Source: Parachlamydiales bacterium
GTDB lineage: Bacteria > Chlamydiota > Chlamydiia > Chlamydiales > JAJFMK01
Direction: 5' to 3'
DNA: 64,000 nt
Assembly (NCBI GenBank): GCA_963704365.1
Contig: OY969899.1
Location: forward strand, 1,969,285 to 2,033,284
Shown here: positions 3,213-58,452 of the stretch, piece after piece
How positions within the stretch are numbered: position 1 is the first letter of the stretch
Layout of the letters: the number at the start of each line of letters is the position of its first letter
Notes under the pieces: generated by a model
Databases searched by the model: none
Seen by the model: the letters and a program-made list of their open reading frames with translations, nothing else
Told to the model about the DNA's origin: nothing
Program-made: the position numbers and the translations under genes

Positions 3213-3249
3213 GCAACATTCACCACGAAACCATCTCGGGAAAAGAGTT

Positions 3250-3457: not shown

Positions 3458-3473
3458 GACCTTCCTTGATGAA

Positions 3474-35011: not shown

Positions 35012-35139
35012 AAGACGATCATTTTAGGACAAACACCCATTTTATGTGCATATCAGATCAAAAAAATAACAAGATGAATGGTCGTACTCATCGACCTAAG
35101 ACATGTCGTTTTGCACATAACAGGAACAGGATAAGCAGG

Positions 35140-35461
35140 CATACGCATCAACTTAAGGAACATCAATTTCTCAACAATCTGTTAAAAGCAAATTACTTAC
35201 AAAGAAACATTTAGAAATCAATTTAGTCAAAAACGGCTTAAATCTTCGAAGAAAGGCCCAAGATTACTCTCTGTGCTCTCCGTGAGCTCTGTGGTGATCT
35301 TCTTTTTATTTTTTACCACAGAGCTCACAGAGAGCACAGAGAGAGGATTTTGAATTGCCCCTTCTAGAATAATCGACTCTGATATTCTACTCTTTTTTTA
35401 TTCCATCTATTTGTGGTTAATTAGCTTAGCATCTACCTCTAGGCTTAGGTTGATGCTTATG
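35140..35461 (+). mobile_element. 322-bp MITE with IS231-type (IS4 family) terminal inverted repeats, copy 1
   Basis: Ends CATACGCATCAACTTAAG / CTTAGGTTGATGCTTATG; no transposase; near-identical inverted copy at 57993-58314; central CTCTGTG/CACAGAG palindrome. Confidence 0.88.
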
Positions 35462-35502
35462 CCTACTCATCCTGTCCTTTTCTTTTTGAGGGATATGTTG
35501 TG

Positions 35503-36951
35503 TTATTGGATCTGTTTGAAAGCTTGAGGGACTTGATCGGCAATGTCTTGCACGTTCATGGAATAGGATGTCACTTTTTCAGCCGCTAATTCCCCGGCTA
35601 TTCCATGTAGTGAAGCCCCCAGTAACGCTGCACTGTGGGGACTTAGATCTTGAGCTAGAAACGCACCTACAATTCCGCTTAGGAGATCTCCACACCCTGC
35701 CGTCGCCATGCCTGGATCGCCAAAAGGGATCACACGAGGTTCTTCCCCAAATAAAAAGGTTGGTCCACCCTTAGCCAGAAGGGTGATCTTTCTTTTGGCG
35801 GCATATTGAGAACTGACCTCAAGCCATTCCTGCGATCGTTTTGAATATTGTCCACCCAAAAGCCGATTGAGCTCTCCTTGGTGGGGAGTCAAAACGGCCC
35901 CTTGAGGTAGAAGTAGGCGCCTTTCAGCGACATGGTAAAGGGCATCTCCATCTACGACAACTTTTTTAGCTTGTGAGAGAACCTCTTCGACCAGATCTCC
36001 CATTGTATCTTCTCTTCCTAATCCAGGACCGATCACCACAGCATCGTACTTTTCAAGACTGGCTAGATCATCGATCGATTTCACAATCAATTCTGGAAGA
36101 TGGGTAAAATACCCCGCAAGGTCGCTTTGAGTGTACAAGTGGACAATCCCTGCCCCTCCACGAAATGCCCCTAAAGAAGCCAAGTAGGCAGCCCCTGTCA
36201 TGCCTGGGCTGCCAGCGATCACCGCAACAAATCCTCTTTCATACTTGTGACGGCTTCTTTTGACCTGGGGTAGCAGAAGAGGGAGTTCAGATTTTTCTAC
36301 TACCGAAAAAAGGGGGCGGGCTGACTGCTCTACCTCCTCTGAGAAAATCGGCAATGTCTGGATAATGCCAGAATAATCCCAACCTTCCCCAAGATAGGAG
36401 GCTGATTTCGGAAAGCCAATGGCAAGAGTGACAGAGGCCGCAATGGGTCTTCCTTCTCCCCCCGTCCCAGAGGCAATATCGATGCTTAAAATGGGCAATC
36501 CCGAATGGTTGGCATAATCAATCATCTCTTGATACACCCCGCGGATCTCTCCATGGAAACCAGTTCCGAAAATTCCATCAAGGATCACACCCTCATCTGG
36601 GATGTGAGAACGGATCAAAGGCAACGGATAAACTTTTCCACCCATTTGCAAAAAACGGGTTTTGGCCTCTGAGGCTAAAGGCGAATGGGATTCATTCACA
36701 TCGGTCACAATAGCTACAACTTCAATTCCTTTAGAAAAAAGTTCTATTCCTGCAACTAGAGCATCACCACCATTATTTCCCTTACCAACAAGGAGGTACA
36801 CTCTCTTTTTAAAGTCATTTGCCTTGATGAAATTTGCAGTGAAGGATGCTATTTGCTTTCCTGCTTTTTGCATCAACTCAGCTGTTGTGACCCCATTTTT
36901 TTCAGAAAGGGTCTCCAGCCTGCTCATCTCTTCAGAGGAGACAACTTTCAT
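35503..36951 (-). CDS. nnr: Bifunctional NAD(P)HX epimerase/dehydratase
   Basis: GKGNNGGDAL, DGIFGTG, DIASG, HKY.RG, IGPGLG, TPHQGE, MATAGCGDLLSG. Confidence 0.93.
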   Translation of the reverse strand: MKVVSSEEMSRLETLSEKNGVTTAELMQKAGKQIASFTANFIKANDFKKRVYLLVGKGNNGGDALVAGIELFSKGIEVVAIVTDVNESHSPLASEAKTRFLQMGGKVYPLPLIRSHIPDEGVILDGIFGTGFHGEIRGVYQEMIDYANHSGLPILSIDIASGTGGEGRPIAASVTLAIGFPKSASYLGEGWDYSGIIQTLPIFSEEVEQSARPLFSVVEKSELPLLLPQVKRSRHKYERGFVAVIAGSPGMTGAAYLASLGAFRGGAGIVHLYTQSDLAGYFTHLPELIVKSIDDLASLEKYDAVVIGPGLGREDTMGDLVEEVLSQAKKVVVDGDALYHVAERRLLLPQGAVLTPHQGELNRLLGGQYSKRSQEWLEVSSQYAAKRKITLLAKGGPTFLFGEEPRVIPFGDPGMATAGCGDLLSGIVGAFLAQDLSPHSAALLGASLHGIAGELAAEKVTSYSMNVQDIADQVPQAFKQIQ

Positions 36952-37943
36952 AAATGCTCTTCCTTTACTTCACGCTGCATCAAAGACTGTAACGCCATCA
37001 TAGGAGAGAGGTGTTCGTAAATCAGACCAAAAACAGCCGATGTGATGGGAAGGGGAACCTCTTTGACTCGGGCCAACATCTCGACCGAGTGTGCCGTATA
37101 GGCCCCTTCTACCACCATTCCTATCTGCGACAGAGCCTCCTCTGCAGTTTTCCCTTCAGCCAACAACTTTCCAAAAGAATAGTTACGACTCAACGGAGAA
37201 GAACAGGTGGCAATCAGATCACCCATACCAGACAGACCGCTCAAGGTTTCGGCTCTTCCCCCCGCTGAAAGGGCCAATTTTCTCATTTCATGCAAACCGC
37301 GTGTCATCAAAGCAGCCCTTGCTGATGCCCCCAATTTCAAACCGTCTGATATTCCACAGGCAACTGCAATGATATTTTTGACTGAGCCTCCGAAGGCCAC
37401 ACCAATCACATCAGAATTTGGGTAGACACGAAAAGTTGGGGTATTGAAACAGCGGGCAATAAAACGCATCACCTCTTCATTGTCAGAAGCAGCTACGACA
37501 GAAGTCGGTTTTCCTCGGATCACCTCTTGGGCGAAACTTGGACCAGAAAGGAGCCCTATTTTACCTTTTGCAAACCCGCCTAATACATCGTTTAGCACCT
37601 CTGGCAAAGTCAGCAACGACTCCTTTTCAATCCCTTTTGAGGAGATGACCACTGGGCAAGTAATATTGGCTTTTGGCACTTCTGTAAAAACAGGTCGCAA
37701 ACCTTCTGATGTTACAGCCTCGACAATCATATCTCTTTTAAAAGTGGCCTCATCAAGATTTGTTGTCCATTTAAGCCCTTCAGGAATAGGGATATCCTTA
37801 AAAAGGGGGTGTGGTTTTTTCTCAGTAAGGCTTTTTGCAAGCTCTTTGTCACGTGTCCACAACAACACTTCATACCCTTTGGAAACCAATAAAAGGGCTA
37901 TTGCAAATCCCCAAGATCCACTTCCAAGCACTGTGATTTTCAC
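36948..37943 (-). CDS. gpsA: NAD(P)H-dependent glycerol-3-phosphate dehydrogenase
   Basis: VLGSGSWG, SKGIE, LSGPSFA, KNIIAVACG, GLSGMGDLIATC..SRN. Confidence 0.95.
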   Translation of the reverse strand: MKITVLGSGSWGFAIALLLVSKGYEVLLWTRDKELAKSLTEKKPHPLFKDIPIPEGLKWTTNLDEATFKRDMIVEAVTSEGLRPVFTEVPKANITCPVVISSKGIEKESLLTLPEVLNDVLGGFAKGKIGLLSGPSFAQEVIRGKPTSVVAASDNEEVMRFIARCFNTPTFRVYPNSDVIGVAFGGSVKNIIAVACGISDGLKLGASARAALMTRGLHEMRKLALSAGGRAETLSGLSGMGDLIATCSSPLSRNYSFGKLLAEGKTAEEALSQIGMVVEGAYTAHSVEMLARVKEVPLPITSAVFGLIYEHLSPMMALQSLMQREVKEEHL

Positions 37944-39016
37944 TTTTCATCTCCGTCGATATAAGGGGTTTTTCCTACACTTTTTCCAAGCCAATGGGTT
38001 TTTAAATCAGGTGTAGGGTAATAAAAGCGGGGGTCGATCTCCAGCACATCAGTATCTATAGGAACCCCTGTTATTTCTTGTAAAATTCCACGTTCTCTTT
38101 CGGAAAGGGCCCTTTTTACCCTTTCTAGATCATCTCTCTCTTTTAGGGGAACGAACGTTTTCTCTCGGGGATAGACGATCGGCCCGATTTTTTTGGCCAA
38201 TGGGAAATGGTCGAAGATATATCGCTCTTGCTTCCAGCCCCATTGCCCCTCTTTGATCTTCTTCCATTGTAAGTGCAAAGGGAGTTGAAATGTATTTTGT
38301 GCTGCAAGGCGAGCAAAGGAAAGATTCATAAGAAGAAGGGAAATATTGGCAAAATCAAAACCCTCTTTTTCTTCCATTTCGTTGTATTCCACTACCCTTA
38401 GTTCCCCTTCCTTCTCAACAAGGAGCCCTACTTTTTCCACAGGCGAATTTTTTCTGATCACCTTCAGCGTCAGTTCGTATCCTCCCCTCAAGTGAAAATC
38501 AATCCACCTTGGGTCGACAGGGTCTGCTAAGGGATTTTCAACTAGCACGGTTGTCAAAAGTTTTACCCCACTCTCTTCCCACTTTTTCAACGCACCATTT
38601 TCTTCGAGTACTTTAAAAACTCCTCCATTTCCATCGGGTCCAGAAAATGGAAGAGGGTCTTTATTTTCATCTAGATAGGGAAGCTCTCCTTGCTCGCAAA
38701 TGATAAAGTCTTTTCCTTTGAAGAACTCTTTTGTTGCTTGTGTGTTCCCCTTTGAGGTCAAAATAGCGACAGGTATTGCTTTTCCATAGCACAAACTAGC
38801 TGCCTTGATTTTATCGGCAAACAATTGGAAGAGAGAATGTTGGCGGACAGGTGTTACAGGAAAAGTCCCTTTGGGGCCATCCCACCCAAGGCGGCTTCCG
38901 ACGCCTCCGGCAAGGAGAACGACGGCAACTTTTCCTTCTTTCAAAGCCTCGATCCCGAGTTGATCTGGTAAGGCTGGGCCCCACGAAAGAGGTTCAGGAG
39001 GCGGGGTGTATTTCAT
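37940..39016 (-). CDS. UTP-sugar-1-phosphate uridylyltransferase (eukaryote-type UDPGP/UAP family)
   Basis: LLAGG.GSRLG..GPKG, PDGNGG, ENPL..DP, EKVG, VEY.E, E.YIFD, FVPLK. Confidence 0.88.
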   Translation of the reverse strand: MKYTPPPEPLSWGPALPDQLGIEALKEGKVAVVLLAGGVGSRLGWDGPKGTFPVTPVRQHSLFQLFADKIKAASLCYGKAIPVAILTSKGNTQATKEFFKGKDFIICEQGELPYLDENKDPLPFSGPDGNGGVFKVLEENGALKKWEESGVKLLTTVLVENPLADPVDPRWIDFHLRGGYELTLKVIRKNSPVEKVGLLVEKEGELRVVEYNEMEEKEGFDFANISLLLMNLSFARLAAQNTFQLPLHLQWKKIKEGQWGWKQERYIFDHFPLAKKIGPIVYPREKTFVPLKERDDLERVKRALSERERGILQEITGVPIDTDVLEIDPRFYYPTPDLKTHWLGKSVGKTPYIDGDEK

Positions 39017-40050
39017 ACCAATGCAGTGAGACGTTCAAAAACCTCGTCTGCCGAGATTTTTTCCATGCACCGAAAATCGATCGGGCAAACGCGTCGGTAA
39101 CAGGGAGAACAAAAAACTTTTTTGTAAATGACCTCTCCAAATTTGTAGGGACCTGTTTTTGTCGGATTGGTGGAACCAAAAAGGGCGATTAAGGGGACCT
39201 GCAATGCCGCAGCGATGTGCATCGGTCCACTATCGTTTGAAAGAAATGCATCGCAAGCCTCAATAAGGGCTAACAATTCTCTCAGTGTTGTCTTACCTGC
39301 TAAGTTAACAACTCGCTCCCCCATCCCTTGGGTGATTTCGTCCACTAGAGCAGATCCTGCCATATCTCCAAAAACCACCATGAGATGGGGAGTTTCAACC
39401 ACTAACCGTTCCAACAACTTTTCAAAGGAAGTTTTTGGCCAACATTTAGCAGAGCCAAAAGCAGCTCCTGGGTTGATACCGATCACTTTTTGCCCAGGAA
39501 AAAGCTTCAGCCCATCTAGCCTATCTTTAGCGACTTTTTTTTCTTCAGGAGAAACATAAAGCCTTGGCAATGTATCTGATGGAGAAATTCCAAGGGGTAT
39601 TAACAAATCTTTGTAAATTTCAACTAGGTGGCGCTCTTCGATGTCCTTGGGCACTTGCACTGGATGGTTGAGCAAAAGAGAACGGCAATGGGTGGCAAAA
39701 CCGTAACGCTCTTTCACCCCCGCTCTCCAGAACCAGTAGGCAGATGAAAAAGAGTTGGTGAGGAGAACGCCTAAATCAAATTCTTCTTTTTTCAGTGGTA
39801 GGAGTAGGTTGGGATGAAGAGCTGTGTGGACCCATCCGCTGATTTTTTTGAAACGGAGGATCTGGTCGACATAGGGATTCCCTTGGATAAGATCTCCAAC
39901 GGCTCCCTGACACATAGCCGTGACACTGGCATCGGGGAAAGCTTGTTTGATATCTTGCAGGCAGGGTGTTGCCATGACAACATCACCCAGCCAGTTCGGC
40001 ATTCTTACAACAATCCGCTTCGGTTTCTTCACAGTTACAAGTCTACGCAT
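39013..40050 (-). CDS. waaF: LPS heptosyltransferase II (GT9)
   Basis: PNWLGDVVMATP, NPGAAFGSAKCWP, LAGKTTL, SNDSGPMHIAAAL, LFGST. Confidence 0.88.
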   Translation of the reverse strand: MRRLVTVKKPKRIVVRMPNWLGDVVMATPCLQDIKQAFPDASVTAMCQGAVGDLIQGNPYVDQILRFKKISGWVHTALHPNLLLPLKKEEFDLGVLLTNSFSSAYWFWRAGVKERYGFATHCRSLLLNHPVQVPKDIEERHLVEIYKDLLIPLGISPSDTLPRLYVSPEEKKVAKDRLDGLKLFPGQKVIGINPGAAFGSAKCWPKTSFEKLLERLVVETPHLMVVFGDMAGSALVDEITQGMGERVVNLAGKTTLRELLALIEACDAFLSNDSGPMHIAAALQVPLIALFGSTNPTKTGPYKFGEVIYKKVFCSPCYRRVCPIDFRCMEKISADEVFERLTALV

Positions 40051-40144
40051 GACTCCATTTATCCGAAAGCCTTGCGATATTTCTGATAAGCTAATTCATC
40101 ACGAAGCAAGAAAAGTTCTTAACTCCTTAGCAAGAAATAACAAT

Positions 40145-40425
40145 GGTTACGACTTCCAGATTCAATACGAAGAAGCTTCGCCAAAAAAGACTAATTTTAG
40201 GTAGACATTTTTTATTTTTTTGGTAACTTCGTCTACAAAATATATTTTTTGGATGCGAAGCACCTAAATAAAAAGAACTCTATCAAAATATCTTCTAGAA
40301 TAACGAAGCTTCTTTCGAGTCTCTCTAGTGAATTAAATTAGCAAAATTTTACAAACGAATAGCTTTTGCTTGGGATTTACCTTCGCGTCCTTCGTCTCTT
40401 CGTGTTGAATCTGGAAGTCGTAACC
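40145..40425. repeat. MITE-like element bounded by 29-bp inverted repeats, with degenerate palindrome-family pieces inside
   Basis: ggttacgacttccagattcaatacgaaga (40145-40173) vs tcttcgtgttgaatctggaagtcgtaacc (40397-40425): 28/29 complementary. Confidence 0.7.
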
Positions 40426-40436
40426 CACCTAAATTT

Positions 40437-41381
40437 TTATGTATAATGGTCTATGAGCTCGATGGCCCGCTCCTGATCCAACTTCCGCAGCTGGTCAAAC
40501 ACCTCCAACCCCTCAAGGGCCTTCCCTGACTGAAAGTAAAGTGTCCCTAACTTTTGCAACGCATCTAGGTCGTGGGGCCGCAGACGAGAAGCCTCCTCAA
40601 AAGCCTGCAACTCTTCGTCTTTTCTTCCTAGGTCACCTAAGGTGTAAGCCAATTGAAACAAAATCCAAGGATCATTGGGGTCGTATTGTCGTAAAATTTT
40701 AAATTCCAATAAGGCACGATTTGAGGCCTCTTGAAATTTGGTTAGTAATAGATTTTGGAAAACTTTATTGCCCCGCTTTTCTCCTTTATAAAGCTCTCCC
40801 AACAGGACATAGCTGTTGGCTAATGAGACGTGCAAATCGGGATTTAGAGGAGAAAGCTTGATCCGCTCAATCTCTTCACCAATGGCAAATTTTAACAACG
40901 ATTCTCGAATAAAAAAAAGATCATGCCAAAAAAGAAAAGCAAAGTGCTGGTTAAATTTTTTTAGGGGTCCGATTTGAAACTCAACCCCTTCCAGGGTTTT
41001 AGAACTTCTGATTAACGCCTCAACAACAAAGCGCCTCTCTTCAACTGTTGTCCCATCCCCATCAAAAATTCCACGTAAAGCTTCAACAAGTTCTCTTTGA
41101 ATCTCTTGGAATTTTTCGTACTTGATGCTTGCAAAGTAGACCCGTAACGAAAGGTAGGAAAAAAGGGTGAAAAGAAAAAGGGCCCCTGTAATAGCTGTTC
41201 CCCAGGAGATCGGAGAAATGGAAAGAAAGGACAAAAGGACTATCCCTTCCAGTCCCAAGATCAAAAAAAGGACAAGCTGATAGGTGAAATCTTTTTTTAT
41301 AGCTGACAACCAGCTCGCTTTTGCTTTTTCTGTTTCCTGACTTAAGAACCCTTGCAGCGGGTCGCTTTCTTCTGCGATCAT
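40437..41381 (-). CDS. Membrane-anchored TPR protein
   Basis: Two N-terminal TMs; C-terminal TPRs (HVSLANSYV, PNDPW..QLAY, LGTLYFQ.G). Confidence 0.75.
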   Translation of the reverse strand: MIAEESDPLQGFLSQETEKAKASWLSAIKKDFTYQLVLFLILGLEGIVLLSFLSISPISWGTAITGALFLFTLFSYLSLRVYFASIKYEKFQEIQRELVEALRGIFDGDGTTVEERRFVVEALIRSSKTLEGVEFQIGPLKKFNQHFAFLFWHDLFFIRESLLKFAIGEEIERIKLSPLNPDLHVSLANSYVLLGELYKGEKRGNKVFQNLLLTKFQEASNRALLEFKILRQYDPNDPWILFQLAYTLGDLGRKDEELQAFEEASRLRPHDLDALQKLGTLYFQSGKALEGLEVFDQLRKLDQERAIELIDHYT

Positions 41382-41395
41382 GTATACGAGAGTAG

Positions 41396-42682
41396 GTGAA
41401 ATTCTCTTCAGTGTTCAAGTCTTTATCGATCTTTTGTTTTTTATTCCTGGTTTCGACCGCCGCTTTGTTCCCATCAGAAGGGACGCGCGGCCTTCTTAAC
41501 CCCAAGGCGATTGCCCTCGTCCTCTTTGTCTTATCGTTTACCGCCTATTTTTTGACGGAACGAAAAGTTGAGGAAAAAGAGCTGTTCACGATCGGCGGTT
41601 TTTTTCTGCTATTAGGAGGAATGGTCACCTGGATCGTGATTGCCCTTTTAAATGGACGGATCGAACCGATTGCCATCATTGACGAATCGAAACTTTTTCT
41701 TATTACTTTCCTTCCGTTTTTTGGAGCCAAGATCTTGCATCAACGTGGTGCGCTCAAATTTTCGACATTTCTTAAAACTCTTCTTTATGCAAACAGCCTC
41801 TACACCCTTGCAAAGATAGGCTTTTTGATGCTTGTTTTTTTAAAAATCATCTCCTTTTCGACCTTTTTGGATGTGACCGGAATCCGGGTGATGAGTCTTG
41901 ACGTGGCTGGCAGTTTCAACCGCTTTTTGACTTCGTGTGATCTGTTCACCCCTTTTTTATTGTTTTTTGTAGCTGCAAGAAAGAGCTTTGGCCTCAAACT
42001 CAACCGGGTTTTTGTCTATTTGTACATTCCACTTTCGCTTTTGTCGATTGCGATCGCGTTCTCTAGGGTATTTCTCTTTATAGGGGTCTTTTCTCTCCTC
42101 CTTGCCCTCTTATTGCAATTCCAGAAAAAAGCTATTTTTGCTTTTTATGTCACCCTGTTCCTCTGTTTGGGAATCACAGCGTTACTAGGGCCTGAAAAAG
42201 TGGTTTCGATGGTCGAATTGCGCCTCTTTAGCCGCGAAAACACAGCATCAGATGTTGTCCGAGAAGGACAAATAAAGGCTTTAATCGATGAAGCGTCAGA
42301 GCATCCTCTTCTAGGATTAGGAATGGGTGGCTATTCGCACGAGGTGATCCGAGATACCGATGTTTTACATCTCTACGAGGTGCAATGGTTAGCACTCCTT
42401 GCCCAATTTGGATTTATTGGATTACCCCTTCTGCTTGCACCGGTCTTTGTCCTCTTTTTCTCTTTTTTAAAAGGGGTGCTTACCTTTGAAAGGCTCTTTT
42501 TATTCACCCTCTTTCTCGGTTGGATCGCTTCTGGCGCCACTAACCCCTTCGTCCTTTCGCTTGCAAGCGGCGTGATGTATACTTTGTTCTTCTTAGGACT
42601 TAAAGAACTTGAAACCGGTTACCTACATCACACCCACCAAATCGTTCGTTCAACTCCTACAGGAGTGCCGATCGTCTCTTGA
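41396..42682 (+). CDS. O-antigen ligase/polymerase family (Wzy_C/WaaL-like) membrane protein
   Basis: About 11 TMs; FSR motif; loop S..VR..Q...HPLLGLGMG; QFGFIG. Confidence 0.75.
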   Translation: MKFSSVFKSLSIFCFLFLVSTAALFPSEGTRGLLNPKAIALVLFVLSFTAYFLTERKVEEKELFTIGGFFLLLGGMVTWIVIALLNGRIEPIAIIDESKLFLITFLPFFGAKILHQRGALKFSTFLKTLLYANSLYTLAKIGFLMLVFLKIISFSTFLDVTGIRVMSLDVAGSFNRFLTSCDLFTPFLLFFVAARKSFGLKLNRVFVYLYIPLSLLSIAIAFSRVFLFIGVFSLLLALLLQFQKKAIFAFYVTLFLCLGITALLGPEKVVSMVELRLFSRENTASDVVREGQIKALIDEASEHPLLGLGMGGYSHEVIRDTDVLHLYEVQWLALLAQFGFIGLPLLLAPVFVLFFSFLKGVLTFERLFLFTLFLGWIASGATNPFVLSLASGVMYTLFFLGLKELETGYLHHTHQIVRSTPTGVPIVS

Positions 42683-43427
42683 ACTATTAAAATGTCTAGT
42701 TTGGCGAGACATTTTAGTCCGATACAAAGAGGCCTCTTTAGGCATTTTGTGGGCCCTTTTTCGCCCAGCTTTAAGCGTTGTTCTGTTGACCTATCTATTT
42801 GGTGTTGTGGCTAAACTCCCCTCTGCCAATGCTCCCTATTCCCTTTTTGTTTTAGCCGGCATTATCCCCTGGCAGCTGGTTGTTAGCGTCCTGCAAACCT
42901 CAAGCACTAGCTTTATCCTCAACCATGAATTGATCTCGAAAATTTATTTCCCACGTATTCATCTGGTTTTAAGCAATCTGCTGGTCAACTCGGTTGACCT
43001 TGTGGTGTCCCTGGTTGTGTTTCTCCCGTTCCTTTTTTTCCAAGTAGGCTTCCGTTGGGAAAATCTATTGTTACTTTTGCTGTTACCGCTTTTACTGCTT
43101 CTTGCCTTTTCGGTTGCACTGCTGGTTTCCTCCCTTTCGATCCGGATCAGAGATCTTGTCATCGCAGTTCCTTACCTGTCTCAAATCTCCCTTTTTTTAA
43201 CGCCAGTTGGATACAGCTCAAACCTCATCGAGGGGTGGGGCGCTTTTCTTCTCTATCTGAACCCTCTGACCGGCATTATAGAGGGGTTTAGATACGCTTT
43301 GTTGGGAATAGTCCATCCCCATTTAGAATGGACCCTAACATTGTCGATTGTCACTACACTTTCTTTTTTACTAGCAGCTCTATTTTTCTTTAAAAGGACC
43401 GATCAGATCTTATCGGATGTGCTATGA
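42609..43427 (+). CDS. wzm: O-antigen ABC exporter permease
   Basis: RDILVRYK..LGILWA..P, LISKIYFPR, FLTPVGY, LNPLTGIIEGFR. Confidence 0.9.
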   Translation: MKPVTYITPTKSFVQLLQECRSSLELLKCLVWRDILVRYKEASLGILWALFRPALSVVLLTYLFGVVAKLPSANAPYSLFVLAGIIPWQLVVSVLQTSSTSFILNHELISKIYFPRIHLVLSNLLVNSVDLVVSLVVFLPFLFFQVGFRWENLLLLLLLPLLLLLAFSVALLVSSLSIRIRDLVIAVPYLSQISLFLTPVGYSSNLIEGWGAFLLYLNPLTGIIEGFRYALLGIVHPHLEWTLTLSIVTTLSFLLAALFFFKRTDQILSDVL

Positions 43428-44254: not shown

Positions 44255-44454
44255 TCTTAAAGCTTGTCAAAAATGCCCTTCTAACAAAGCTAACCAGGCT
44301 CGAAGGTACTTCATAGCCCATTTCTTTCCCTTACTACGGAGCGCTTGGAGTGCCAAGCTCCTCTTTAGCTTTCGGATTTAAAAATAGGAAAGCAAAGGAG
44401 GAACTCTCAGTACAAATGCTAAAGGATCGCTATGAGCAAGTTTCTTCGTCTTTT

Positions 44455-48462: not shown

Positions 48463-48573
48463 TCTCTTTTTTAAATAAAAATCGAAAAATTCATGAGTCG
48501 TCTTTTTTTTTCAAGAAGAAAATCATGACAAGTCAGAGCTCGTATTAGAAAGTAATCGGCTCACGCGAAGAGA

Positions 48574-50452: not shown

Positions 50453-51297
50453 TTCAAATACTCCTCTAGGGCTTCCTCCCAAGAAGAAAGGGGCAGCGTG
50501 TTTTTGATTTTTTCGTTTGAAAGAACCGAATAGGAAGGTCTTCGTATCTTAGATGGAAAAACTTCTTGTGAAACTGGCTCAATCCTATCTGCAAAACCAA
50601 GCCTTTCCCCAATCGCGCGGGCAAAGGCATACCAACTGGCTTCCCCCCCATTCACAGCATGGTAGAGGCCAGGTTCTGGCCGCTCTCTTAACAGGCTTAA
50701 CATCAAACGAGCTAAGGAAACCGTGGAGGTGGGGCTCATCCAAATGTCCGAAATGACCTTGATTGGTTCACTTCCCATCCCTTTTTTTATCATCGCCTCG
50801 ACAAAATTACCCCTTTTTTCTCTAGATCCATTTTTTCCATAGAGGGAAGCCGTACGGAGCACATAGGCACCAGGACATTGTGAGAGAGCATAGGCCTCTC
50901 CAAGTGCTTTGGAGGCCCCATATACGGAAAGGGGAGCAGGAAGATCGGTCTCAAGGTAGGGGGTTCTCTTTTTTCCATCGAAGACAAAGTCTGTGCTCAC
51001 ATGGACAAAGGGCACTTTTTTTCGATCAGCGCTTTTGGCCATGACCCCCACTGCATGCCCATTCACTGTGTAGGCAATCGAGGGTTCTTCCTCGGCTTTT
51101 TCAGTTTTATTGTAAGCTGCCACATTGACAATAGCTTCAAAAGGGGTTTCTTCCAGTTTTCTTTCAAGCTCTTTCAAATCGAGGAGGTTGATCTCTTCAC
51201 TTGTCCATGGGAGAAACATCTCCTTGCCTAAAGACATTAAGTCGGACCCTAATTGTCCACGTGCTCCAATTAACAGGATCGGCATGTTTGACTCCAT
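50449..51297 (-). CDS. rfbD: dTDP-4-dehydrorhamnose reductase
   Basis: GARGQLG, STDFVFDG, YGASKALGE, RP.YSVL. Confidence 0.93.
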   Translation of the reverse strand: MESNMPILLIGARGQLGSDLMSLGKEMFLPWTSEEINLLDLKELERKLEETPFEAIVNVAAYNKTEKAEEEPSIAYTVNGHAVGVMAKSADRKKVPFVHVSTDFVFDGKKRTPYLETDLPAPLSVYGASKALGEAYALSQCPGAYVLRTASLYGKNGSREKRGNFVEAMIKKGMGSEPIKVISDIWMSPTSTVSLARLMLSLLRERPEPGLYHAVNGGEASWYAFARAIGERLGFADRIEPVSQEVFPSKIRRPSYSVLSNEKIKNTLPLSSWEEALEEYLK

Positions 51298-51818
51298 AAG
51301 GGGAGAACTTTATCTTTTTCAGAAAGAAGCGGAGAAAATGGGGGCCAATCGATAGCAAGCGTAGGATCGTCCCATCTCACCCCATCCTCGTGAGCTTTAG
51401 AATAAGGCTTTGAAACCTTGTACAGCACTTCAGTTTCATCCTCTAGTGTCATAAATCCATGCAAAAATCCGGCTGGAACAAAAAGCTGAAGATCGCAATC
51501 GAGCGTAAAAGACTCCCACCGTCCAAAGGTCGCCGAATCTTTTCTAACGTCGACGACTACATCGAAAATCTTCCCTTTTAACACTCGAACAAGCTTAGCC
51601 TGTTCAAAAGGAGGCACTTGCAAATGTAACCCTCTGACTGTCCCTCGAAATTTTGAGTGGCTGTGGTTATCTTGGACAAAAGAGGGAGTTATACCTGCAT
51701 TTTTCCAACGTTCTTCTTGATAAGTCTCTGAAAAGAAACCTCTTTCATCAAAAAACTTTTTCGGTCTAAGAAGAAGGGGACCGACTAACCCTTTTCTTTC
51801 GGTAGTTAACATAAGCAA
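51270..51818 (-). CDS. rfbC: dTDP-4-dehydrorhamnose 3,5-epimerase
   Basis: DERGFF.E, FVQDNHS, RGLH.Q, QAKLVRV..G.IFDV.VD.R, GF.HGF. Confidence 0.95.
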   Translation of the reverse strand: MLMLTTERKGLVGPLLLRPKKFFDERGFFSETYQEERWKNAGITPSFVQDNHSHSKFRGTVRGLHLQVPPFEQAKLVRVLKGKIFDVVVDVRKDSATFGRWESFTLDCDLQLFVPAGFLHGFMTLEDETEVLYKVSKPYSKAHEDGVRWDDPTLAIDWPPFSPLLSEKDKVLPLWSQTCRSC

Positions 51819-51841
51819 AAGGATGGTATCACAAAAAACAT

Positions 51842-53089
51842 ATGGTGAAGAGAGAGATCAAGGTTGATACTCTAACTATTTTGCAGGAGACTCCTCGCGA
51901 GAAAGACGAGGATAGGAAGCGGCTGCTCCAATTTCAGGAAAAATGTCTCCTAGCAAAGTTCCCGACCCAATTCCCCACCCTTTACTTTGCTAAAATATTT
52001 TATCCTTCCGAAAAGATTGATGGCGATTTCTTTGATTTGGTTGTCCATGACCCTGAAAGAGTCGACATCATCATGGGAGATGCAAGCGGCAAGGGGCAAG
52101 AAGGGATCATCCTGTCACTTCACATCAGAGAGGCCATCCCCAGGGAAAACCTCTACACCGATACAGACCGTCTGCTAAAGAAGGAACTTCCCTCGCCAAT
52201 TGAGATTGTCGAATTGATCGAAGAAAAAAGTTCTAGGGAATTATCTGAACAGGACAGTCTCGCCTTCCTGACCTATCTCCGGATTGACCTGTCAAAGAAA
52301 AAATTTCTTCTTTTAACAAGGGGGTCGCCTCCCATTATCCACCAACGTAAATCTGGCGAACTCTTTCTTCTTCAGACAGAACACCCTCCTCTTCCTTCCC
52401 CTGTCAGGGTGAAAGAAAAAGAGGAAGAGGGAGAACTAGCGGCCGGAGACCGAATCTTCATTTTTTCTGACGGGGTCCTTTCGTTGGTCAATGAAAGAGG
52501 GGAACCTTTTGATATTGATAGGATCGCTAAGATTGCTGAAGAAAAAAGACACGAATCTTTTGATCAACTTATCCTGGAAATTGATAACAGAATCAAGCAG
52601 TTCATCCGGTCAGATATTAAAAATGACCTTCTTTTTATAGGGATTGAAGTCCTTGGTGAGGGCGAGGCCATTGAACGGATAGGGAAGATAGAGGAAGGGA
52701 TTGTTTCTTTCGATGAGATTTATAAAATAGAGCAAGAGATTCAAACCTGGTTAGCCGCTGAAAAAAGGTTTAACTGGTCTGCCAAAGATCTATTTCAGCT
52801 AAAATTGGCAACACATGAGCTAACCTTAGAATTATTAACGATGCTGAAGGAAAAAGGGTTAGAAACAAAATTAAAGGTTGAGAAGGGGGAAATTGAAGGT
52901 GGGATTGTTCTCACCTTTGTCTACCAGGGGCCCCCTTTTCACCCACAAGAGATCAAAAAACAGACAGACTTTGGATTTGCCCTCTCGGTCATTCAAAAAA
53001 ACGTCCAATCGATCAAATATGGGGAGCGGGAAGGGGGCATGTCTTTCGTTGAACTGACTAAGCTTCAGAAAGCACCTGAAAACTATTAA
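51842..53089 (+). CDS. PP2C/SpoIIE-family (RsbU-like) phosphatase with a degenerate C-terminal anti-sigma (HATPase_c-like) domain
   Basis: GDFFD, MGDASGKG, FSDGV, NDL; C-terminal LKLATHEL..YQGPPF..FGFAL..I....I.Y. Confidence 0.8.
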   Translation: MVKREIKVDTLTILQETPREKDEDRKRLLQFQEKCLLAKFPTQFPTLYFAKIFYPSEKIDGDFFDLVVHDPERVDIIMGDASGKGQEGIILSLHIREAIPRENLYTDTDRLLKKELPSPIEIVELIEEKSSRELSEQDSLAFLTYLRIDLSKKKFLLLTRGSPPIIHQRKSGELFLLQTEHPPLPSPVRVKEKEEEGELAAGDRIFIFSDGVLSLVNERGEPFDIDRIAKIAEEKRHESFDQLILEIDNRIKQFIRSDIKNDLLFIGIEVLGEGEAIERIGKIEEGIVSFDEIYKIEQEIQTWLAAEKRFNWSAKDLFQLKLATHELTLELLTMLKEKGLETKLKVEKGEIEGGIVLTFVYQGPPFHPQEIKKQTDFGFALSVIQKNVQSIKYGEREGGMSFVELTKLQKAPENY

Positions 53090-53121
53090 ACAATTTTGAA
53101 ACATGATATGGCTAGGATCAT

Positions 53122-53460
53122 ATGGCCATCACCTCAGAAGAGCTAGGACCTGCACTAGTGGTTCACCTACATGAAAAGTATATCGACGCATTGAACGCTC
53201 CTACCGTAAAAGGGGAAATTGTATCTCTGATCAAGCCTGGCGCTAAAGTCATACTAGATCTAGGCGAAGTGGAATTCCTAGACAGTTCAGGGATGGGTGT
53301 TATCTTAAGCATTGTTCGGGAACTTGCTGCCTCAGGGGGCACATTAAAGCTGGCAAATGTCAAAAAACCGGTCAGAACGTTGTTTGAGTTGGTCCGATTT
53401 CACAGAATACTGGAGATTTTCGATACGCTAGATACAGCTGTCAAATCCTATGCAACCTAA
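53122..53460 (+). CDS. STAS anti-sigma factor antagonist
   Basis: LDLGEVEFLDSSGMG, VRTLFEL. Confidence 0.9.
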   Translation: MAITSEELGPALVVHLHEKYIDALNAPTVKGEIVSLIKPGAKVILDLGEVEFLDSSGMGVILSIVRELAASGGTLKLANVKKPVRTLFELVRFHRILEIFDTLDTAVKSYAT

Positions 53461-53480
53461 CAAGATTTTAAAAGAACTGG

Positions 53481-55034
53481 TTATTTGGGAGAGTCTTGTA
53501 TTGTGTAGAGAGGGATGCCGAGCTTGTTAAACAGGGGACGGTGCTCTTGGCCAATGTTGTGGATCTCCACATCAATGCCGTCAGATTCCCACCGCTCTTG
53601 GCACTCTTTGATGGCTAATGCGCCACTTGAGTCGTAAAGTGTAACCCTCTCACAGTTGATGTGCAGCTTCTGACACTCTTTAGGCAACCTAACCCGTTTT
53701 AAATCTTCCCCGACAGAAAAAAAGAGAGGTCCATGGATTGTAAGCGCATGGTGGTCACTTTCTTCGGTTAGATGGATTTTCGATACTTTGCCCAACTTTC
53801 TCACCAGCATCAGCGCTGATAATACAATGCCTACTTCAACAGCTAAAACAAGGTCGACCAATACTGTGAGCCCCATGGTGATAAATAAAATGGCACCATC
53901 TGTTTTGTGGGCCCGCGCAATTTTCACAAGATGGGGGAATTCCCCCATATTCCATGCAACAAACACCAGAATGCCTGCCAGGACGGCTAGTGGTATTTTC
54001 CCTGCAAGCGGAGCTAGGAAAAGGACCGCAAGAAAAAGTGTCAGTGCATGGATCATCCCGGCCAATGGAGTTTTTGCACCCAGACGAATATTGGCTGAAG
54101 TTCTCGCGATCGCCCCTGTTGCTGGAATCCCCCCAAAAAATGAGGAGAAGATGTTCGCTACCCCTTGTCCAAACAGCTCAGCATTCGAACGGTGGTGAAA
54201 ACGGGTCATCCGATCGGCAATAGCAGCTGAAAGAAGAGATTCGATCCCTCCCAGAAGGGCCAATGCCACCCCATCAGGAAAAAGCTCTACAATTTTCGCC
54301 CAGCTGATAGGAGGAATAGTCAAAGGGGGAATCGGCGAAGGGATCACCCCATACCTCCCCTCTATTGTCTCGAGCGGAAGCGAGAAAAGATAGGCCACAA
54401 GGGTTGCTATCACCAGGGCAACAATCGCCCCTGGAAGCTTAGGAAATCGTTTCTTCAAGAAAAACAGAAAGCCGGTTGTTGAAAGGCCAAAAAAGGCCGC
54501 CCAGGGGCTCATCCCATGGACCTCCTGGCAAAAGACGGTGCATTTGTCTAAAAACTCTGGAGGTAAACCAACCTGAAGTCCGAAAAAATCTCGGAGCTGA
54601 GAGCCCAAGATGACGATGGCGATCCCAGCGGTAAACCCTGCAATGACCGGTTGAGGGATGTACTTCATCACCTTGCCGAACTTGCACACCCCCATCAAGC
54701 AGAGGATAACCCCCGAAATAAGTGTCGCAATTTGCAGCCCTTCTATCCCATGTTTTGTGACAGTCGCAAGAACAAGAAGAACATAGGCGCCAGTCGGCCC
54801 CCCGATCTGGAAGCGGCTACCCCCTAAAAGGGAGATCAGAAACCCAGCAACAAGAACTGTGTAAAGACCCTTCTCGGGAGAAACCCCGGAGGCAATGGCA
54901 AAAGCTAAGGCAAGAGGGAGCGCAATGATACCGACGCTGACGCCAGCAAGAAGATCGGAAAAAAAACTTTTCCTCATCTCCCCTCGAGTCAACCAACTGA
55001 CTGGTGTTAAATCGCTAAAGAGTCTCTTCCACAC
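53481..55034 (-). CDS. SulP family anion permease with STAS domain
   Basis: DLLAG.SVGIIALPLALAFAIASG, QIGGPTGA, IESLLSA, GIPATGAIART, GPLFF. Confidence 0.93.
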   Translation of the reverse strand: MWKRLFSDLTPVSWLTRGEMRKSFFSDLLAGVSVGIIALPLALAFAIASGVSPEKGLYTVLVAGFLISLLGGSRFQIGGPTGAYVLLVLATVTKHGIEGLQIATLISGVILCLMGVCKFGKVMKYIPQPVIAGFTAGIAIVILGSQLRDFFGLQVGLPPEFLDKCTVFCQEVHGMSPWAAFFGLSTTGFLFFLKKRFPKLPGAIVALVIATLVAYLFSLPLETIEGRYGVIPSPIPPLTIPPISWAKIVELFPDGVALALLGGIESLLSAAIADRMTRFHHRSNAELFGQGVANIFSSFFGGIPATGAIARTSANIRLGAKTPLAGMIHALTLFLAVLFLAPLAGKIPLAVLAGILVFVAWNMGEFPHLVKIARAHKTDGAILFITMGLTVLVDLVLAVEVGIVLSALMLVRKLGKVSKIHLTEESDHHALTIHGPLFFSVGEDLKRVRLPKECQKLHINCERVTLYDSSGALAIKECQERWESDGIDVEIHNIGQEHRPLFNKLGIPLYTIQDSPK

Positions 55035-55150
55035 AGCTTTCCCATGAAAAACTTTAGTATACTCCGACTGGGAAAAATTTGGAAGGAACAGGCATTAAGT
55101 TAGTTGTAAGTGATTGTGATGAACTGATCACATTGATTTCTGAGAGAACG

Positions 55151-55879
55151 CTAAATTCTAAGCGGGGAAAAATACCTTAGCTCATCTTTAACCTTCGCCA
55201 AAAGTGCAGCATCCGGAGTTCCATCCACCGGACGGCCCAAGCTTTCCTTCAACTCATTAAGCTGCTCCTTGCAGAATAAGACATCAGTTGTAGGGATCTG
55301 TGCCGGTAAGCCTCCTGGGAGCAGAGCGCCAATGACGCTCTCTTTATAACTACTAAAATATTTATTACCAATAATCTGATTAAAAGTACTCTCCCTCGCA
55401 TTTGTTGCCACATGTGCTATTTCACTACTTGCCACATGATCAACTTTTGTAATAAAAACGGCTAAAGCTCCAGGATTGCTTTTAAAAGTAGGGGAAGGAG
55501 TGCCGGCTGTAGCAAAATCGACAAGTTTTGCAAGAACCTTAGATCTTCCTCTTAACCGCTCAAGGAAATCTGGGGTACTTTCTTGCCTAAAGCCTTCCAT
55601 GCGAGGAGTTTTTGGGAAAAAAAGTCGAAACATAAAGGATCCAGAATTAATTTTTTCTGAAACAGGCGCCTTATTATCAGAATCAGTTTCTGATTTAACT
55701 GTGTGCCCTGGGCTTGTAGCATCACCATGTGGCGCTTGTAAATTATGAGAAGGTGCAGCATATGAAGGCGCACTATAAGGAGGTGAAGGTTCTCCAGTAG
55801 CAGGTTTATAAGGAGCTGGCTCATGACCGCCCGTTACATAGGAACGCTCTCCTCCTGAAGGCACTTGTAATGAACACAT
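55151..55879 (-). CDS. Hypothetical protein with a Pro/Ser-rich N-terminus (effector-like)
   Basis: ATG 55879 with a GGAGG RBS; low-complexity N-terminus including SPPYSAPSY. Confidence 0.65.
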   Translation of the reverse strand: MCSLQVPSGGERSYVTGGHEPAPYKPATGEPSPPYSAPSYAAPSHNLQAPHGDATSPGHTVKSETDSDNKAPVSEKINSGSFMFRLFFPKTPRMEGFRQESTPDFLERLRGRSKVLAKLVDFATAGTPSPTFKSNPGALAVFITKVDHVASSEIAHVATNARESTFNQIIGNKYFSSYKESVIGALLPGGLPAQIPTTDVLFCKEQLNELKESLGRPVDGTPDAALLAKVKDELRYFSPLRI

Positions 55880-55969
55880 AAACCCTCCTCTTCGCTTTTG
55901 ATTTAAAATTAGCACCGGCTTGTTTTTCTTTTATTAAGAATAGGCTAGAAGAAAGGATGAGGGGACTTC

Positions 55970-57217
55970 ATGGCCAAATCTAATAAAGCCGAGAAAGCCA
56001 AAGAGTTGTGGGAAGGCCTTCCATTAATAGAAGCTAACAATTGGCTAACTCGTTCATTTTTTGGCACTTTTTGTTCCAAATTGGAGGATGGGATCTATGT
56101 TCAACGTTGGAATAGAGATATCATTGAAATTGTCGAAAAGTATGAACAAAGTGGTCTCAATCTAAAAGAATTTCAGAAAAAGCTTCTCAGAAGAAGAGGG
56201 GAAAAACTCCCTTTGGGAATAAAAATATCAGCCCTTAAAACCTTAAGCGAAGGGGAAGGGGTGGTCGATGAGTGGATCGTAGCTAAAAAGATCTATCCCA
56301 CCCGTTCAGTCCTGGTATTCAAAAAAAGCAAACGGCTGTTGCTTCTACAAGACGGAAAATACGAGGAGGGACCAGCTAAAATAGAAGAAAAGGGGAAATT
56401 TGTCCTTTGGAAACAGGCAAACAATAGTTTGAGGGCCATTTTTAGCAAAGAAACTCCTCTAGGCCTCTTGCCCCCCACCACAGAGGTGTCTGATCACGAG
56501 GCTCTTGTGATAGAACCCTCATTAAAAGTCCGAAGGGAGGCTTACAAGGGTCGAGGCCCCTTAAAAATAGTTCAAGGATTTATCCCTTTATTTAAAGGGG
56601 TAGAAACATTGCAAAAATGGGGCTCAACTCACCTATCCATTGATATCGACCGGATGGTGGTCGTAGAAGGAAACCCTCTTATTTTTCAGCTAATGCCGCA
56701 AGATGGGATGTTCAATTTACCCTCTAAACTTGATGTCAACGACCCCCGTTTCGAAAAAATCCGCCCTATTCTGGTAACGAAATTAGAAACTTCTTACCTC
56801 ATTGAGCCTAGAACCACCCCTCTTGGGGAAAGAGAAACTCTCGAAAAACAATGGATCGAGCTTATCGAAGCTATCAAATCGCCCCCTTATCCAGATATGG
56901 GGATAAAATTAGAGCAGTTAAAGGGGACAATCAAACGGATTCAGAATTTTCAGATCGCCATTGCCTTCTTTGAAGCGCTCACAGGAGTGCCCTTTGAAGA
57001 ATGTTTAAGCATCATCTCTCCTGAAGGGATCCTACGTAGGCATATCAAATGGGAAAACATGCAGAGAGCAGTTTATAGCCTTTCCACCCTATCAACCGAC
57101 TCGTCCGCTTCAATTGTTGAGTGGTTAGGAAAACTCATGATGCGAGATAGCAGGTTTACCCTAACCCTTCCTGAAGCTAGGGCTTTTCTCGAAAAGATCC
57201 GCGGCGACAAGGCTTAA
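55970..57217 (+). CDS. Probable Ser/Thr protein-kinase-fold pseudokinase
   Basis: GVETLQKWGSTHLSIDIDRMVV resembles subdomain VIa/b, IAFFEALTGVPF resembles IX, and WLGKLMMRDSRFTLTLPEA resembles XI. Confidence 0.55.
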   Translation: MAKSNKAEKAKELWEGLPLIEANNWLTRSFFGTFCSKLEDGIYVQRWNRDIIEIVEKYEQSGLNLKEFQKKLLRRRGEKLPLGIKISALKTLSEGEGVVDEWIVAKKIYPTRSVLVFKKSKRLLLLQDGKYEEGPAKIEEKGKFVLWKQANNSLRAIFSKETPLGLLPPTTEVSDHEALVIEPSLKVRREAYKGRGPLKIVQGFIPLFKGVETLQKWGSTHLSIDIDRMVVVEGNPLIFQLMPQDGMFNLPSKLDVNDPRFEKIRPILVTKLETSYLIEPRTTPLGERETLEKQWIELIEAIKSPPYPDMGIKLEQLKGTIKRIQNFQIAIAFFEALTGVPFEECLSIISPEGILRRHIKWENMQRAVYSLSTLSTDSSASIVEWLGKLMMRDSRFTLTLPEARAFLEKIRGDKA

Positions 57218-57233
57218 TACCAATCGTAATAAA

Positions 57234-57407
57234 CTATTTATCACACTGGCAATCGGGATCTTGATCTTTTGAACAGGGGCAACCTTTGTCAGGTCCATAA
57301 GCTCCCCCACGCCCCCAATCAAGCCCAAAATAGTTTCGATCGTATAAAGAGGGACCTGCCTCTATAAAACTGGCAGCAAGTAAAAGCAGAAACAGTATCT
57401 TTTTCAT
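57234..57407 (-). CDS. Small secreted Cys-containing peptide (57 aa)
   Basis: Signal peptide MKKILFLLLLAASFIEA; C-terminal CPC..CQC; GAAGGTG RBS-like sequence upstream. Confidence 0.65.
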   Translation of the reverse strand: MKKILFLLLLAASFIEAGPSLYDRNYFGLDWGRGGAYGPDKGCPCSKDQDPDCQCDK

Positions 57408-57554
57408 AGGATCACCTTCTGTTTTGAACAAAAACAGAAGGTAAACATAAATTCAATACTTCATTTCTAAAGTCAAGAAGCTTTACATCTCATGCCTAAG
57501 AGCCATGAAATAGAGAGCTACCACTATCCGCAGGTGTTAGTTGGCTAATTGTAG

Positions 57555-57839
57555 TCATAGTGCTCTCTTTTGCTGTGCTTGTAACTGTGATCGAAGTTCT
57601 ACGACGATTTGGCGCAATTCAGAAACTACTGTCTCTAAATTGGATACTCTTTCGGTTAGCTTCTGGATAGTTTCATCGATCGGGGTGATCCTTCCAGTGA
57701 GATCGTGTTGTGAAGAGGTTGGTTGGACTTGGGGCGGAGAGAACAGATCTTGAATCGATTCTTGGCTAGAACTTGTTTGAAAAACTTGTGTAGTAGGTGG
57801 AATACCTTGTTGTGGACCATTGCCTACAGATGTTGCCAT
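57555..57839 (-). CDS. Small Gln/Ser/Thr-rich protein with a C-terminal coiled coil (effector-like)
   Basis: 94-aa ORF; AGGA RBS; leucine heptads. Confidence 0.6.
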   Translation of the reverse strand: MATSVGNGPQQGIPPTTQVFQTSSSQESIQDLFSPPQVQPTSSQHDLTGRITPIDETIQKLTERVSNLETVVSELRQIVVELRSQLQAQQKRAL

Positions 57840-57992
57840 AATTTTTCCTGATTTTTTTTAGAAACATTTTATCTTCTTGATTTTACGACAGCAACACAAG
57901 AATAGGGGGGAAATTTCATCCAGAAACAATAGTCTTGCATATTAAGTTTACAGATGTGTTTAGCTAATAAAAAAAATAACAGGGTAGATAGG

Positions 57993-58314
57993 CATACGCA
58001 TCAACCTAAGCCTAGAGGTAGATGCTAAGCTAATTAACCACAAATAGATGGAATAAAAAAAGAGTAGAATATCAGAGTCGATTATTCTAGAAGGGGCAAT
58101 TCAAAATCCTCTCTCTGTGCTCTCTGTGAGCTCTGTGGTAAAAAATATAAAGAAGATCACCACAGAGCTCACGGAGAGCACAGAGAGTAATCTTGGGCCT
58201 TTCTTCGAAGATTTAAGCCGTTTTTGACTAAATTGATTTCTAAACGTTTCTTTGTAAGTAATTTGCTTTTAACAGATTGTTGAGAAATTGGTGTTCCTTA
58301 AGTTGATGCGTATG
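57993..58314 (-). mobile_element. 322-bp IS231-type MITE, copy 2, with an 11-bp target-site duplication
   Basis: Ends CATACGCATCAACCTAAG / CTTAAGTTGATGCGTATG; direct repeat GGGTAGATAGG at 57982-57992 and 58315-58325; about 4 differences from copy 1. Confidence 0.92.
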
Positions 58315-58452
58315 GGGTAGATAGGATTGAAAAGGATAGCCTTCGGGAATACAACAGAATCGTGCTGCCTGGTCCACGTCTACTGATACTATGGTATTGC
58401 CCTGAAACAGGCCCGAAGGGCGAAGCCCCGGTTCAAGATTGTAAAATACATT

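Follow-up and report, generated by a model that had tools for sequence, protein, structure and literature searches.

An orphan miniature element, very probably of IS231 descent, that targets a palindromic intergenic repeat in a Parachlamydiales genome

A 64,000-nucleotide stretch of the chromosome of a Parachlamydiales bacterium (GenBank assembly GCA_963704365.1, contig OY969899.1, positions 1969285–2033284; the window) contains two copies of a 322-bp element that has terminal inverted repeats and no transposase gene. The evidence set out here makes it very probable that this is an orphan, non-autonomous MITE (miniature inverted-repeat transposable element) of IS231 descent that was recently mobile, is targeted to a palindromic repeat and was moved in trans. 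It has the properties by which bacterial MITEs are recognized, namely a length below about 500 bp, terminal inverted repeats, target duplications, similar copies and no transposase. The element forms a well-defined family of an already known kind. The chlamydial assignment of its host holds. The host genome (G000) is a single contig (C1) of 2,635,134 bp with an estimated completeness of 94%. Positions below are those of the window unless given as genome positions, and the features of the two copies are as follows.

35140..35461, plus strand: MITE copy 1, 322 bp, with 4 differences from the family consensus
35140..35157, plus strand: left terminal inverted repeat of copy 1, CATACGCATCAACTTAAG, in agreement with the consensus given for IS231-subgroup ends in Table 1 of PMC2266710
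35444..35461, minus strand: right terminal inverted repeat of copy 1, which reads CATAAGCATCAACCTAAG, with one substitution
35267..35344, no strand: central CTCTGTG/CACAGAG hairpin of copy 1 (element positions 128–205)
35129..35139, plus strand: 11-mer on the left of copy 1, GGATAAGCAGG, from the outer left arm of a palindromic repeat (X, described below)
35462..35472, plus strand: 11-mer on the right of copy 1, CCTACTCATCC, from the right arm of X and in inverted orientation to that on the left
57993..58314, minus strand: MITE copy 2, 322 bp, with 2 differences from the family consensus
57982..57992, no strand: first target-site duplication of copy 2, GGGTAGATAGG on the plus strand and CCTATCTACCC in the orientation of the element
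58315..58325, no strand: second target-site duplication of copy 2, identical to the first at all 11 bp
58110..58187, no strand: central hairpin of copy 2

The two copies are in inverted orientation and differ from one another at 4 positions, as had been reported in a preliminary description made from the sequence of the window. The perfect 11-bp duplication that it reported at copy 2 was found at both junctions, and the right end of this copy, when reverse-complemented, reads CATACGCATCAACCTAAG. No direct repeat surrounds copy 1, and the 11-mers on its two sides are instead inverted, 2 mismatches away from perfect complementarity. The neighbours of copy 1 are two open reading frames (ORFs) on the minus strand, one of 482 codons with its 3′ end towards the element and one of 296 codons with its 5′ end towards it, and copy 2 is likewise located between ORFs. 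The predicted fold of the whole element has an energy of −49 kcal/mol (z = −5.8 relative to 100 shuffles), with the central hairpin folding as two 14-pair helices. An Rfam scan of the element returned only sub-threshold matches to generic miRNA hairpins and no family for the hairpin, and a scan of positions 35000–35600 for promoter and terminator patterns gave none inside the element and the same counts as in shuffled sequence.

A BLASTN search of the genome with copy 1 produced 84 alignments, of which 35 were longer than 100 bp and had 92.9–100% identity. The genome-wide count of copies that had been proposed at the outset thus gave about 35 members rather than two. Both ends were retained in 30 of the 35 matches, while the remaining five were shortened at an end. 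An 11-bp direct repeat was found around 21 of the 30 two-ended copies (perfect in 17, with one mismatch in three and with two in one), and when registers of 8–13 bp were examined in these 30 copies, 11 bp was the only one with perfect direct repeats. The description of the element as non-autonomous, multi-copy and associated with target duplications is in agreement with these counts. Individual copies have between 1 and 20 differences from the consensus, arranged in a star-like pattern, and 74 of the 100 variable alignment columns are singletons. The median pairwise identity among copies is 96.9% when gaps are counted and 97.8% when only substitutions are considered. To judge from the copies themselves, the low divergence and the star-like pattern support a recent burst, in keeping with the recent mobility proposed at the outset.

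In Table 1 of De Palmenaer et al. 2008 (PMC2266710), members of the IS231 subgroup of insertion sequences (IS) are listed with ends of the form CAT-------AA--TAA--- and direct repeats of 10–12 bp. The terminus of the element, CATACGCATCAACTTAAGGA, includes C1, A2 and T3, A11 and A12, and T15, A16 and A17, that is, all eight of the conserved positions, and the 11-bp duplication falls within the range of the subgroup. The earlier assignment of the ends to the IS231 type is consistent with both entries of this table. The inverted repeats of IS231C from a Bacillus thuringiensis plasmid are CATGCCCATCAACTTAAGAA and CATGCCCATCAACTTAAGGA, and the end of the element is identical to the left one at 17 of 20 positions and to the right one at 18 of 20. 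This plasmid copy of IS231C has its own 11-bp duplication (TGGCGGTACCC), and the inverted repeat quoted in the preliminary description is the one that it carries. IS231-subgroup elements encode a single-ORF DDE transposase with the signature Y-2-R-3-E-6-K. As neither the element nor the genome includes such a transposase, the claim made here is that the element is derived from IS231, not that it is an IS231.

The target specificity is strong. Nineteen of the 21 duplicated sites read AT/CCTRYNNAYCC/TGY (the 11-mer between the slashes) followed by a T-rich run, so that the preferred target has the motif CCT-N5-TCC (GGA-N5-AGG on the other strand), bordered by AT and, at the opposite end, by TGTTATTTT. 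This target is the terminal arm of an approximately 100-bp palindromic intergenic repeat, which we named X. Its typical form is AAAATAACAGGATGAGCAGGAT...ATCCTGCTCATCCTGTTATTTT, with the arms mostly in pairs, their starts 20–206 bp apart, and with flanking runs of A and T. The genome contains 107 matches to the 22-nt arm consensus with up to 5 mismatches, compared to 2 in the shuffled genome, and 28 of the 107 adjoin a MITE end. X arms are occupied by 24 of the 30 two-ended copies, and the orientation of the MITE relative to the arm is about equally divided (11 and 10 of the 21 duplicated sites). The other two duplicated sites are the same 11-mer, CCTTGGAGAGG, of a second short repeat, entered in opposite orientations. 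Unoccupied paralogues of this second repeat at genome positions 492580–492590 and 760637–760647 contain the 11-mer once and hence serve as empty sites. When the element and one 11-mer were removed, no ORF of 120 codons or more crossed the site in 25 of 30 cases, indicating that most insertions are intergenic.

The second repeat family was found at genome positions 299913–300394, 492537–492622, 760610–760688 and 1540459–1540837, with several copies unoccupied, and fragments of it are present in the window at ~516–538. An X arm-like match is located close by, at ~479–500.

The source of the transposase was sought in the host genome. The 11 matches to PF01609 were assigned by NCBIfam models to ISAs1, IS1634 and one unrelated IS4 element. 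With IS231-like transposases as queries (two from other phyla and six from the order of the host), tblastn searches of this genome found none beyond a single marginal match to the IS1634 element (E = 0.007). A cognate IS4/IS231 transposase, which the preliminary description had proposed should be looked for, was thus found neither by profile search nor by tblastn, and in the absence of an IS231-type transposase at home the element is an orphan MITE.

Autonomous elements with the same ends do occur elsewhere. The exact terminus, CATACGCATCAACYTAAG, was found in at least 111 stretches in a collection of species genomes from many phyla, the carriers among the matches listed including Methylococcales, large sulfur bacteria, Planctomycetes, Chloroflexi, Verrucomicrobia, Fibrobacteria, Bacteroidales, Poribacteria and several chlamydial metagenome-assembled genomes (MAGs). 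Eighty of these loci (L022–L101) were retrieved for inspection; in 21 a partner end was found within 125–534 bp, a MITE-like arrangement, and a few contained full-length elements. Two of the latter are 1465 bp with a 445-residue ORF (L094) and 1476 bp with a 465-residue ORF (L057). Both ORFs encode IS4-family transposases (NF033592 at 160.8 and 209.1 bits, respectively, with a cut-off of 115, and PF01609), which are only ~33% identical to one another although the outer 18 bases of the two elements are the same. In a plasmid collection, the L057 protein matched the transposases of IS231S, IS231E, IS231C and ISBce2 with 24–28% identity over 79–95% of its length. The L094 IS (2100–3700, in a Pirellulaceae MAG) is flanked by a 21-bp direct repeat that is the arm of a nearby hairpin, rather than by an 11-bp duplication.

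Within the same order, transposase homologues were detected in 11 of 251 genomes; none was found in the host genome, its two same-genus relatives or its one same-family relative. One of the order's elements is a 1559-bp IS (L138) whose ends read CATACGCATCAGGCTAAG; it is located in an X palindrome, where it has a perfect duplication, CCTGCATATCC. Its transposase is 25% identical to that of IS231C over 367 residues (E = 1e-35), matches the same NCBIfam model as IS231C and has Y-2-R-3-E-6-K visible in the alignment. A second (L137) has the duplication CCTGTTAATCC, and in a third locus (L136) an IS and a 345-bp MITE are found on either side of one GGATATGCAGG. The IS231-like elements of L137 and L138, which are from other families of the order, are likewise bordered by the X arm motif. 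A MITE of Thiomargarita for which no parent is known is described in PMC4853749, with a direct repeat of 10 bp and an inverted repeat of 19 bp. As Thiomargarita contigs contain the exact terminus (L043, L047, L048 and L071), this 'parentless' hupL MITE may belong to the same IS231-like lineage.

On the reading that we favour, an IS231-like DDE transposase supplied in trans would bind the terminal repeats of ~18–20 bp, cut the element out and paste it into a target cut with an 11-bp stagger, the repair of which would give rise to the 11-bp duplication. With X, an intergenic repeat, as the preferred target, most copies would land between genes. The family would have been amplified recently and in this species only, and the mobilizing transposase would now be gone from the assembled chromosome, having either been lost or been carried by a replicon that is not in the assembly. 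The central hairpin would represent a copy of an older, order-wide repeat, positioned between the ends and passively multiplied.

Five copies, including copy 1, have inverted flanks with the arrangement outer arm, GGATGAGCAGG, MITE, CCTGCTCATCC, outer arm, in which the MITE replaces the whole interior of X. These are best read as the products of a double hit, in which both arms of one X would have been entered in direct orientation and recombination between the two copies would have removed the X interior. With 28 of the 107 arms occupied, both arms of one X are expected to be hit now and then, and a pair of directly oriented copies separated by under 200 bp would be likely to recombine, leaving the structure seen. 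Inversion between copies was also considered as a source of the inverted flanks. No reciprocal copy with two inner flanks was found among the 30, and inversion is thus unsupported. The same geometry was found for another MITE in a same-genus genome (G002) and for a full IS in G025, and a mechanism tied to palindromic targets might be responsible for it. In G025 (L141 1300–3000), a full IS231-like element is exactly central in a GGGCAACGCCC-type palindrome, which resembles the inverted repeats of the Y1 gene described below, and has no direct duplication.

Three other explanations for the copies were weighed against mobilization in trans by an IS231-like transposase. The only IS4-family match in the genome is a resident IS of 1440 bp (genome 1614238–1615677; L005 1095–2534), the inverted repeat of which, CAATGTCATCAACTTAAAAATA, agrees with the MITE end at 14 of 22 positions, 11 of them contiguous (common core CATCAACTTAA), and the MITE might have been moved by it. 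This is unlikely, since the duplication made by this IS is 9 bp (AACGACACT) and not 11 bp, and four of the six outermost bases differ from those of the MITE. Its transposase frame is also interrupted by one TAA, giving pieces of 279 and 135 residues, and in a BLASTP comparison the protein showed no similarity (E = 0.74) to the transposase of L057, an element with the exact ends of the MITE. Alternatively, the 322-bp unit could have spread among X repeats without transposition, by homologous recombination or gene conversion through the homology of the X arms. Such a process would be consistent with the location of 24 of 30 copies in X arms, with the five that have arm-to-arm inverted flanks and no duplication, and with the recurrence of this geometry in the G002 MITE and the G025 IS. 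It would not create 17 perfect 11-bp repeats with a sequence that varies from site to site, and it is very unlikely. Two insertions are, in addition, in one 11-mer of an unrelated repeat in opposite orientations, paralogous empty sites with a single copy of this 11-mer exist, and the ends are genuine ends of the IS231 type.

The duplication in the window had also been flagged as a possible assembly artefact, an explanation that is extremely improbable and in favour of which no evidence was found. The 35 copies have distinct flanks and site-specific duplications, which exclude it, and the restriction of perfect repeats to register 11 alone across the 30 two-ended copies rules out chance as well as assembly error. 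Near-identical pieces of the element were also found in contigs from independent public sequencing runs, one of which joins the flank of another copy in this genome, while others enter flanks that are unlike those of copy 2. Thirteen runs were listed, each with no more than 30% of the sampled words; the four that were examined gave low-depth contigs.

A number of observations weigh against descent from IS231 and movement in trans to palindromic targets. Nine of the 30 two-ended copies have no direct duplication, five of them having inverted flanks and four having neither arrangement. No empty or polymorphic site was found in the contigs of the four low-depth public runs, none of these contigs bridged copy 2, and no joints were found. 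Relatives were also examined for empty sites, as had been suggested. In the same-genus genome G002, the intergenic region orthologous to that of copy 1 is 106 bp, compared to 481 bp here, and is without the element. It holds a degenerate solo end, and so is not a clean empty site, and at the copy 2 site only one flank was matched in the same-genus genomes. The subterminal sequences of the left and right ends had 0 matches in two exact-pattern scans of metagenome contigs, in which no parent IS sharing them was thus found. The target consensus of IS231A is GGG-N5-CCC, from which the CCT-N5-TCC of the element differs. Because the genome has no cognate transposase, mobility is inferred from sequence footprints alone, and since the single-contig assembly is estimated to be 94% complete, the transposase could be plasmid-borne, on an unassembled replicon.

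The element is restricted in its distribution. A search of 41 related genomes recovered the full element from G000 alone, and its left 123 bp were found only there among 400 scored genomes of the order (two candidates scored for each), in which there were otherwise only weak matches of 26–42 bp. The same-genus genomes contain MITEs of their own, with the same ends, the same kind of central hairpin and spacers that cannot be aligned; that in G001 is 280 bp with the duplication CCTGCCCATCC and that in G002 is 247 bp. The host genome also contains an older, degenerate MITE family with similar ends (CATACGCATCAACCTAAGACATGTCG...) and an X palindrome as its interior, located at genome positions 218257, 746800, 1111960–1112167 and 1332057, and in the window just upstream of copy 1:

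35084..35128, plus strand: degenerate end of the older MITE family, with a similar terminus (GTACTCATCGACCTAAGACATGTCGTTTTGCA...), followed by an X arm

A better-kept example of 264 bp is present in G002 (L154 233–496). The MITEs of the same-genus genomes, together with these older degenerate elements, indicate that the lineage has long been exposed to IS231-like elements.

When compared to IS231 (IS231A and IS231C), the element is alike in its CAT start, AA at positions 11–12, TAA at positions 15–17, 11-bp duplication and 17–18 of 20 identities with the IS231C repeats. It also appears to share a pronounced preference in its target, the duplicated 11-mer having a conserved triplet at either end, and a taste for the terminal repeat of another element, as IS231A prefers the ends of Tn4430 and the IS231C copy adjoins a Tn3-family transposase gene. 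It differs in being without a transposase gene, in its size (322 bp versus ~1650 bp), in its host, an environmental chlamydia, and in that its nearest autonomous relatives are ~25% identical to the IS231C transposase. MIC231 cassettes, as outlined in a section of PMC6199540, consist of IS231 repeats around at least one coding sequence, are 0.7–3 kb long, have a CA region by the left repeat and are moved in trans by an IS231 transposase. The parallel with MIC231 drawn in the preliminary description applies to the IS231-type inverted repeats without a transposase and, on the reading favoured here, to the mode of movement. The element differs in that it is 322 bp, too short for a passenger gene, has no clear C-then-A run at the left repeat when inspected by eye and carries no gene, for which last reason it is a MITE rather than a MIC231 cassette.

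Palindromes are also the targets of IS1397 and ISKpn1 in enterobacterial BIMEs (bacterial interspersed mosaic elements) and of ISPpu9 and ISPpu10 in the repetitive extragenic palindromes (REPs) of Pseudomonas. The resemblance lies in insertion that is nearly confined to a short motif in an intergenic palindrome, a safe place between genes. Those IS are autonomous, belong mostly to other families and make short duplications, whereas here the element is non-autonomous and the 11-bp site is in the arm, not the loop. In PMC2266710, strong target specificity is noted for some IS4-subgroup elements and for ISRm22, and target-site specificity is noted there for IS231 as well. With other bacterial MITEs, including MITEAba12, the element shares its small size, terminal repeats and duplications, near-identical copies, and non-coding, intergenic character. 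It stands apart in having IS231 as its parent family, a transposase that is absent from the host genome and an unrelated hairpin repeat at its centre. Correia elements, Nezha and Chunjie are further examples of bacterial MITEs.

A search of the literature on MITEs in Parachlamydia, Protochlamydia and Chlamydiae recovered no relevant description, and the present data quantify a MITE burst in an environmental chlamydia. They carry the IS231 subgroup, in which the 18-nt terminus hardly varies, well outside the Bacillus cereus group, and they show a non-autonomous element staying harmless by inserting into another repeat. With some 35 repeats of 322 bp that are nearly identical, the genome has substrates for rearrangement and is harder to assemble, and the orphan state of the family provides a natural test of how long MITEs survive the loss of their transposase.

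The central hairpin also occurs outside the MITE, as the preliminary description had stated, and two such free copies are in the window:

3313..3371, no strand: free CTCTGTG/CACAGAG hairpin outside the MITE (genome 1972597–1972655)
30366..30437, no strand: free hairpin outside the MITE (genome 1999650–1999721)

The genome contains about nine free copies in all, beside 34 MITE matches that include the hairpin region. The hairpin is also found without the MITE in 14 of 40 related genomes belonging to many families, where nearly all of the matches cover the hairpin part only; the sole match to another part of the element is weak (positions 28–67, in G033). In 12 loci checked, no hairpin had ends resembling the terminal inverted repeats on both sides, and one locus had a single weak match ~400 bp away. 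The proposal that the MITE is the vehicle by which the palindrome spreads holds for this genome, in which the MITE has multiplied the hairpin. Across the order the hairpin is present in genomes in which the MITE was not found, so its spread does not require the MITE.

Genes of the GxxExxY type are flanked by the hairpin and by X. The host genome has two GxxExxY (PDDEXK_3, TIGR04256) genes, at genome positions 814248–814754 (L159) and 756939–757725 (L160). One of them is followed directly by a free hairpin, and the other is inside an X palindrome that has a MITE copy in its right arm. In G014, hairpin arms flank truncated PDDEXK_3 ORFs in tandem units (L019 880–1620), and PF13366 is matched 64 times there, in many cases by truncated copies enclosed by hairpin arms. 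A tree was built from 21 GxxExxY genes of the order (loci L161–L190; L181 was classed as X-flanked by its arms, by hand, its downstream 250 bp including a MITE). All 12 CTCTGTG-flanked genes were in a clade of 17, and the two X-flanked genes (from G000 and G016) were in the other clade of four, with a support of 100/100 for the split. In this small sample from kin genomes, flank type appears to follow protein clade, which we regard as a lead rather than a result.

It is possible, though we hold this only tentatively, that X and the CTCTGTG hairpin are the inverted-repeat arms of GxxExxY nuclease cassettes, that the free copies are gene-less derivatives of them, and that a lineage of IS231-like elements present across the order has specialized in entering the arms, much as IS231 does with the ends of Tn4430. 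If so, an undescribed mobile or self-propagating nuclease cassette may be seeding chlamydial genomes with palindromes, in a three-layer nesting with the MITE on top, and the interest of the element would be the greater. In the titles and opening lines of the abstracts of the GxxExxY literature, no paper on such cassettes was apparent.

A role for the central hairpin as a REP served by a REP-associated tyrosine transposase (RAYT) was considered and rejected. There are two PF01797 (Y1) matches in the genome, neither with a CTCTGTG/CACAGAG motif within 700 bp, and the hairpin is found beside GxxExxY genes rather than beside these. The stronger Y1 match is flanked by a different inverted repeat. 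The Y1 (RAYT-like) gene at genome positions 107022–107357 (region 106700–107800) has its own flanking inverted repeats, GCAACAGCCCATGGCAACGCCATGGG....

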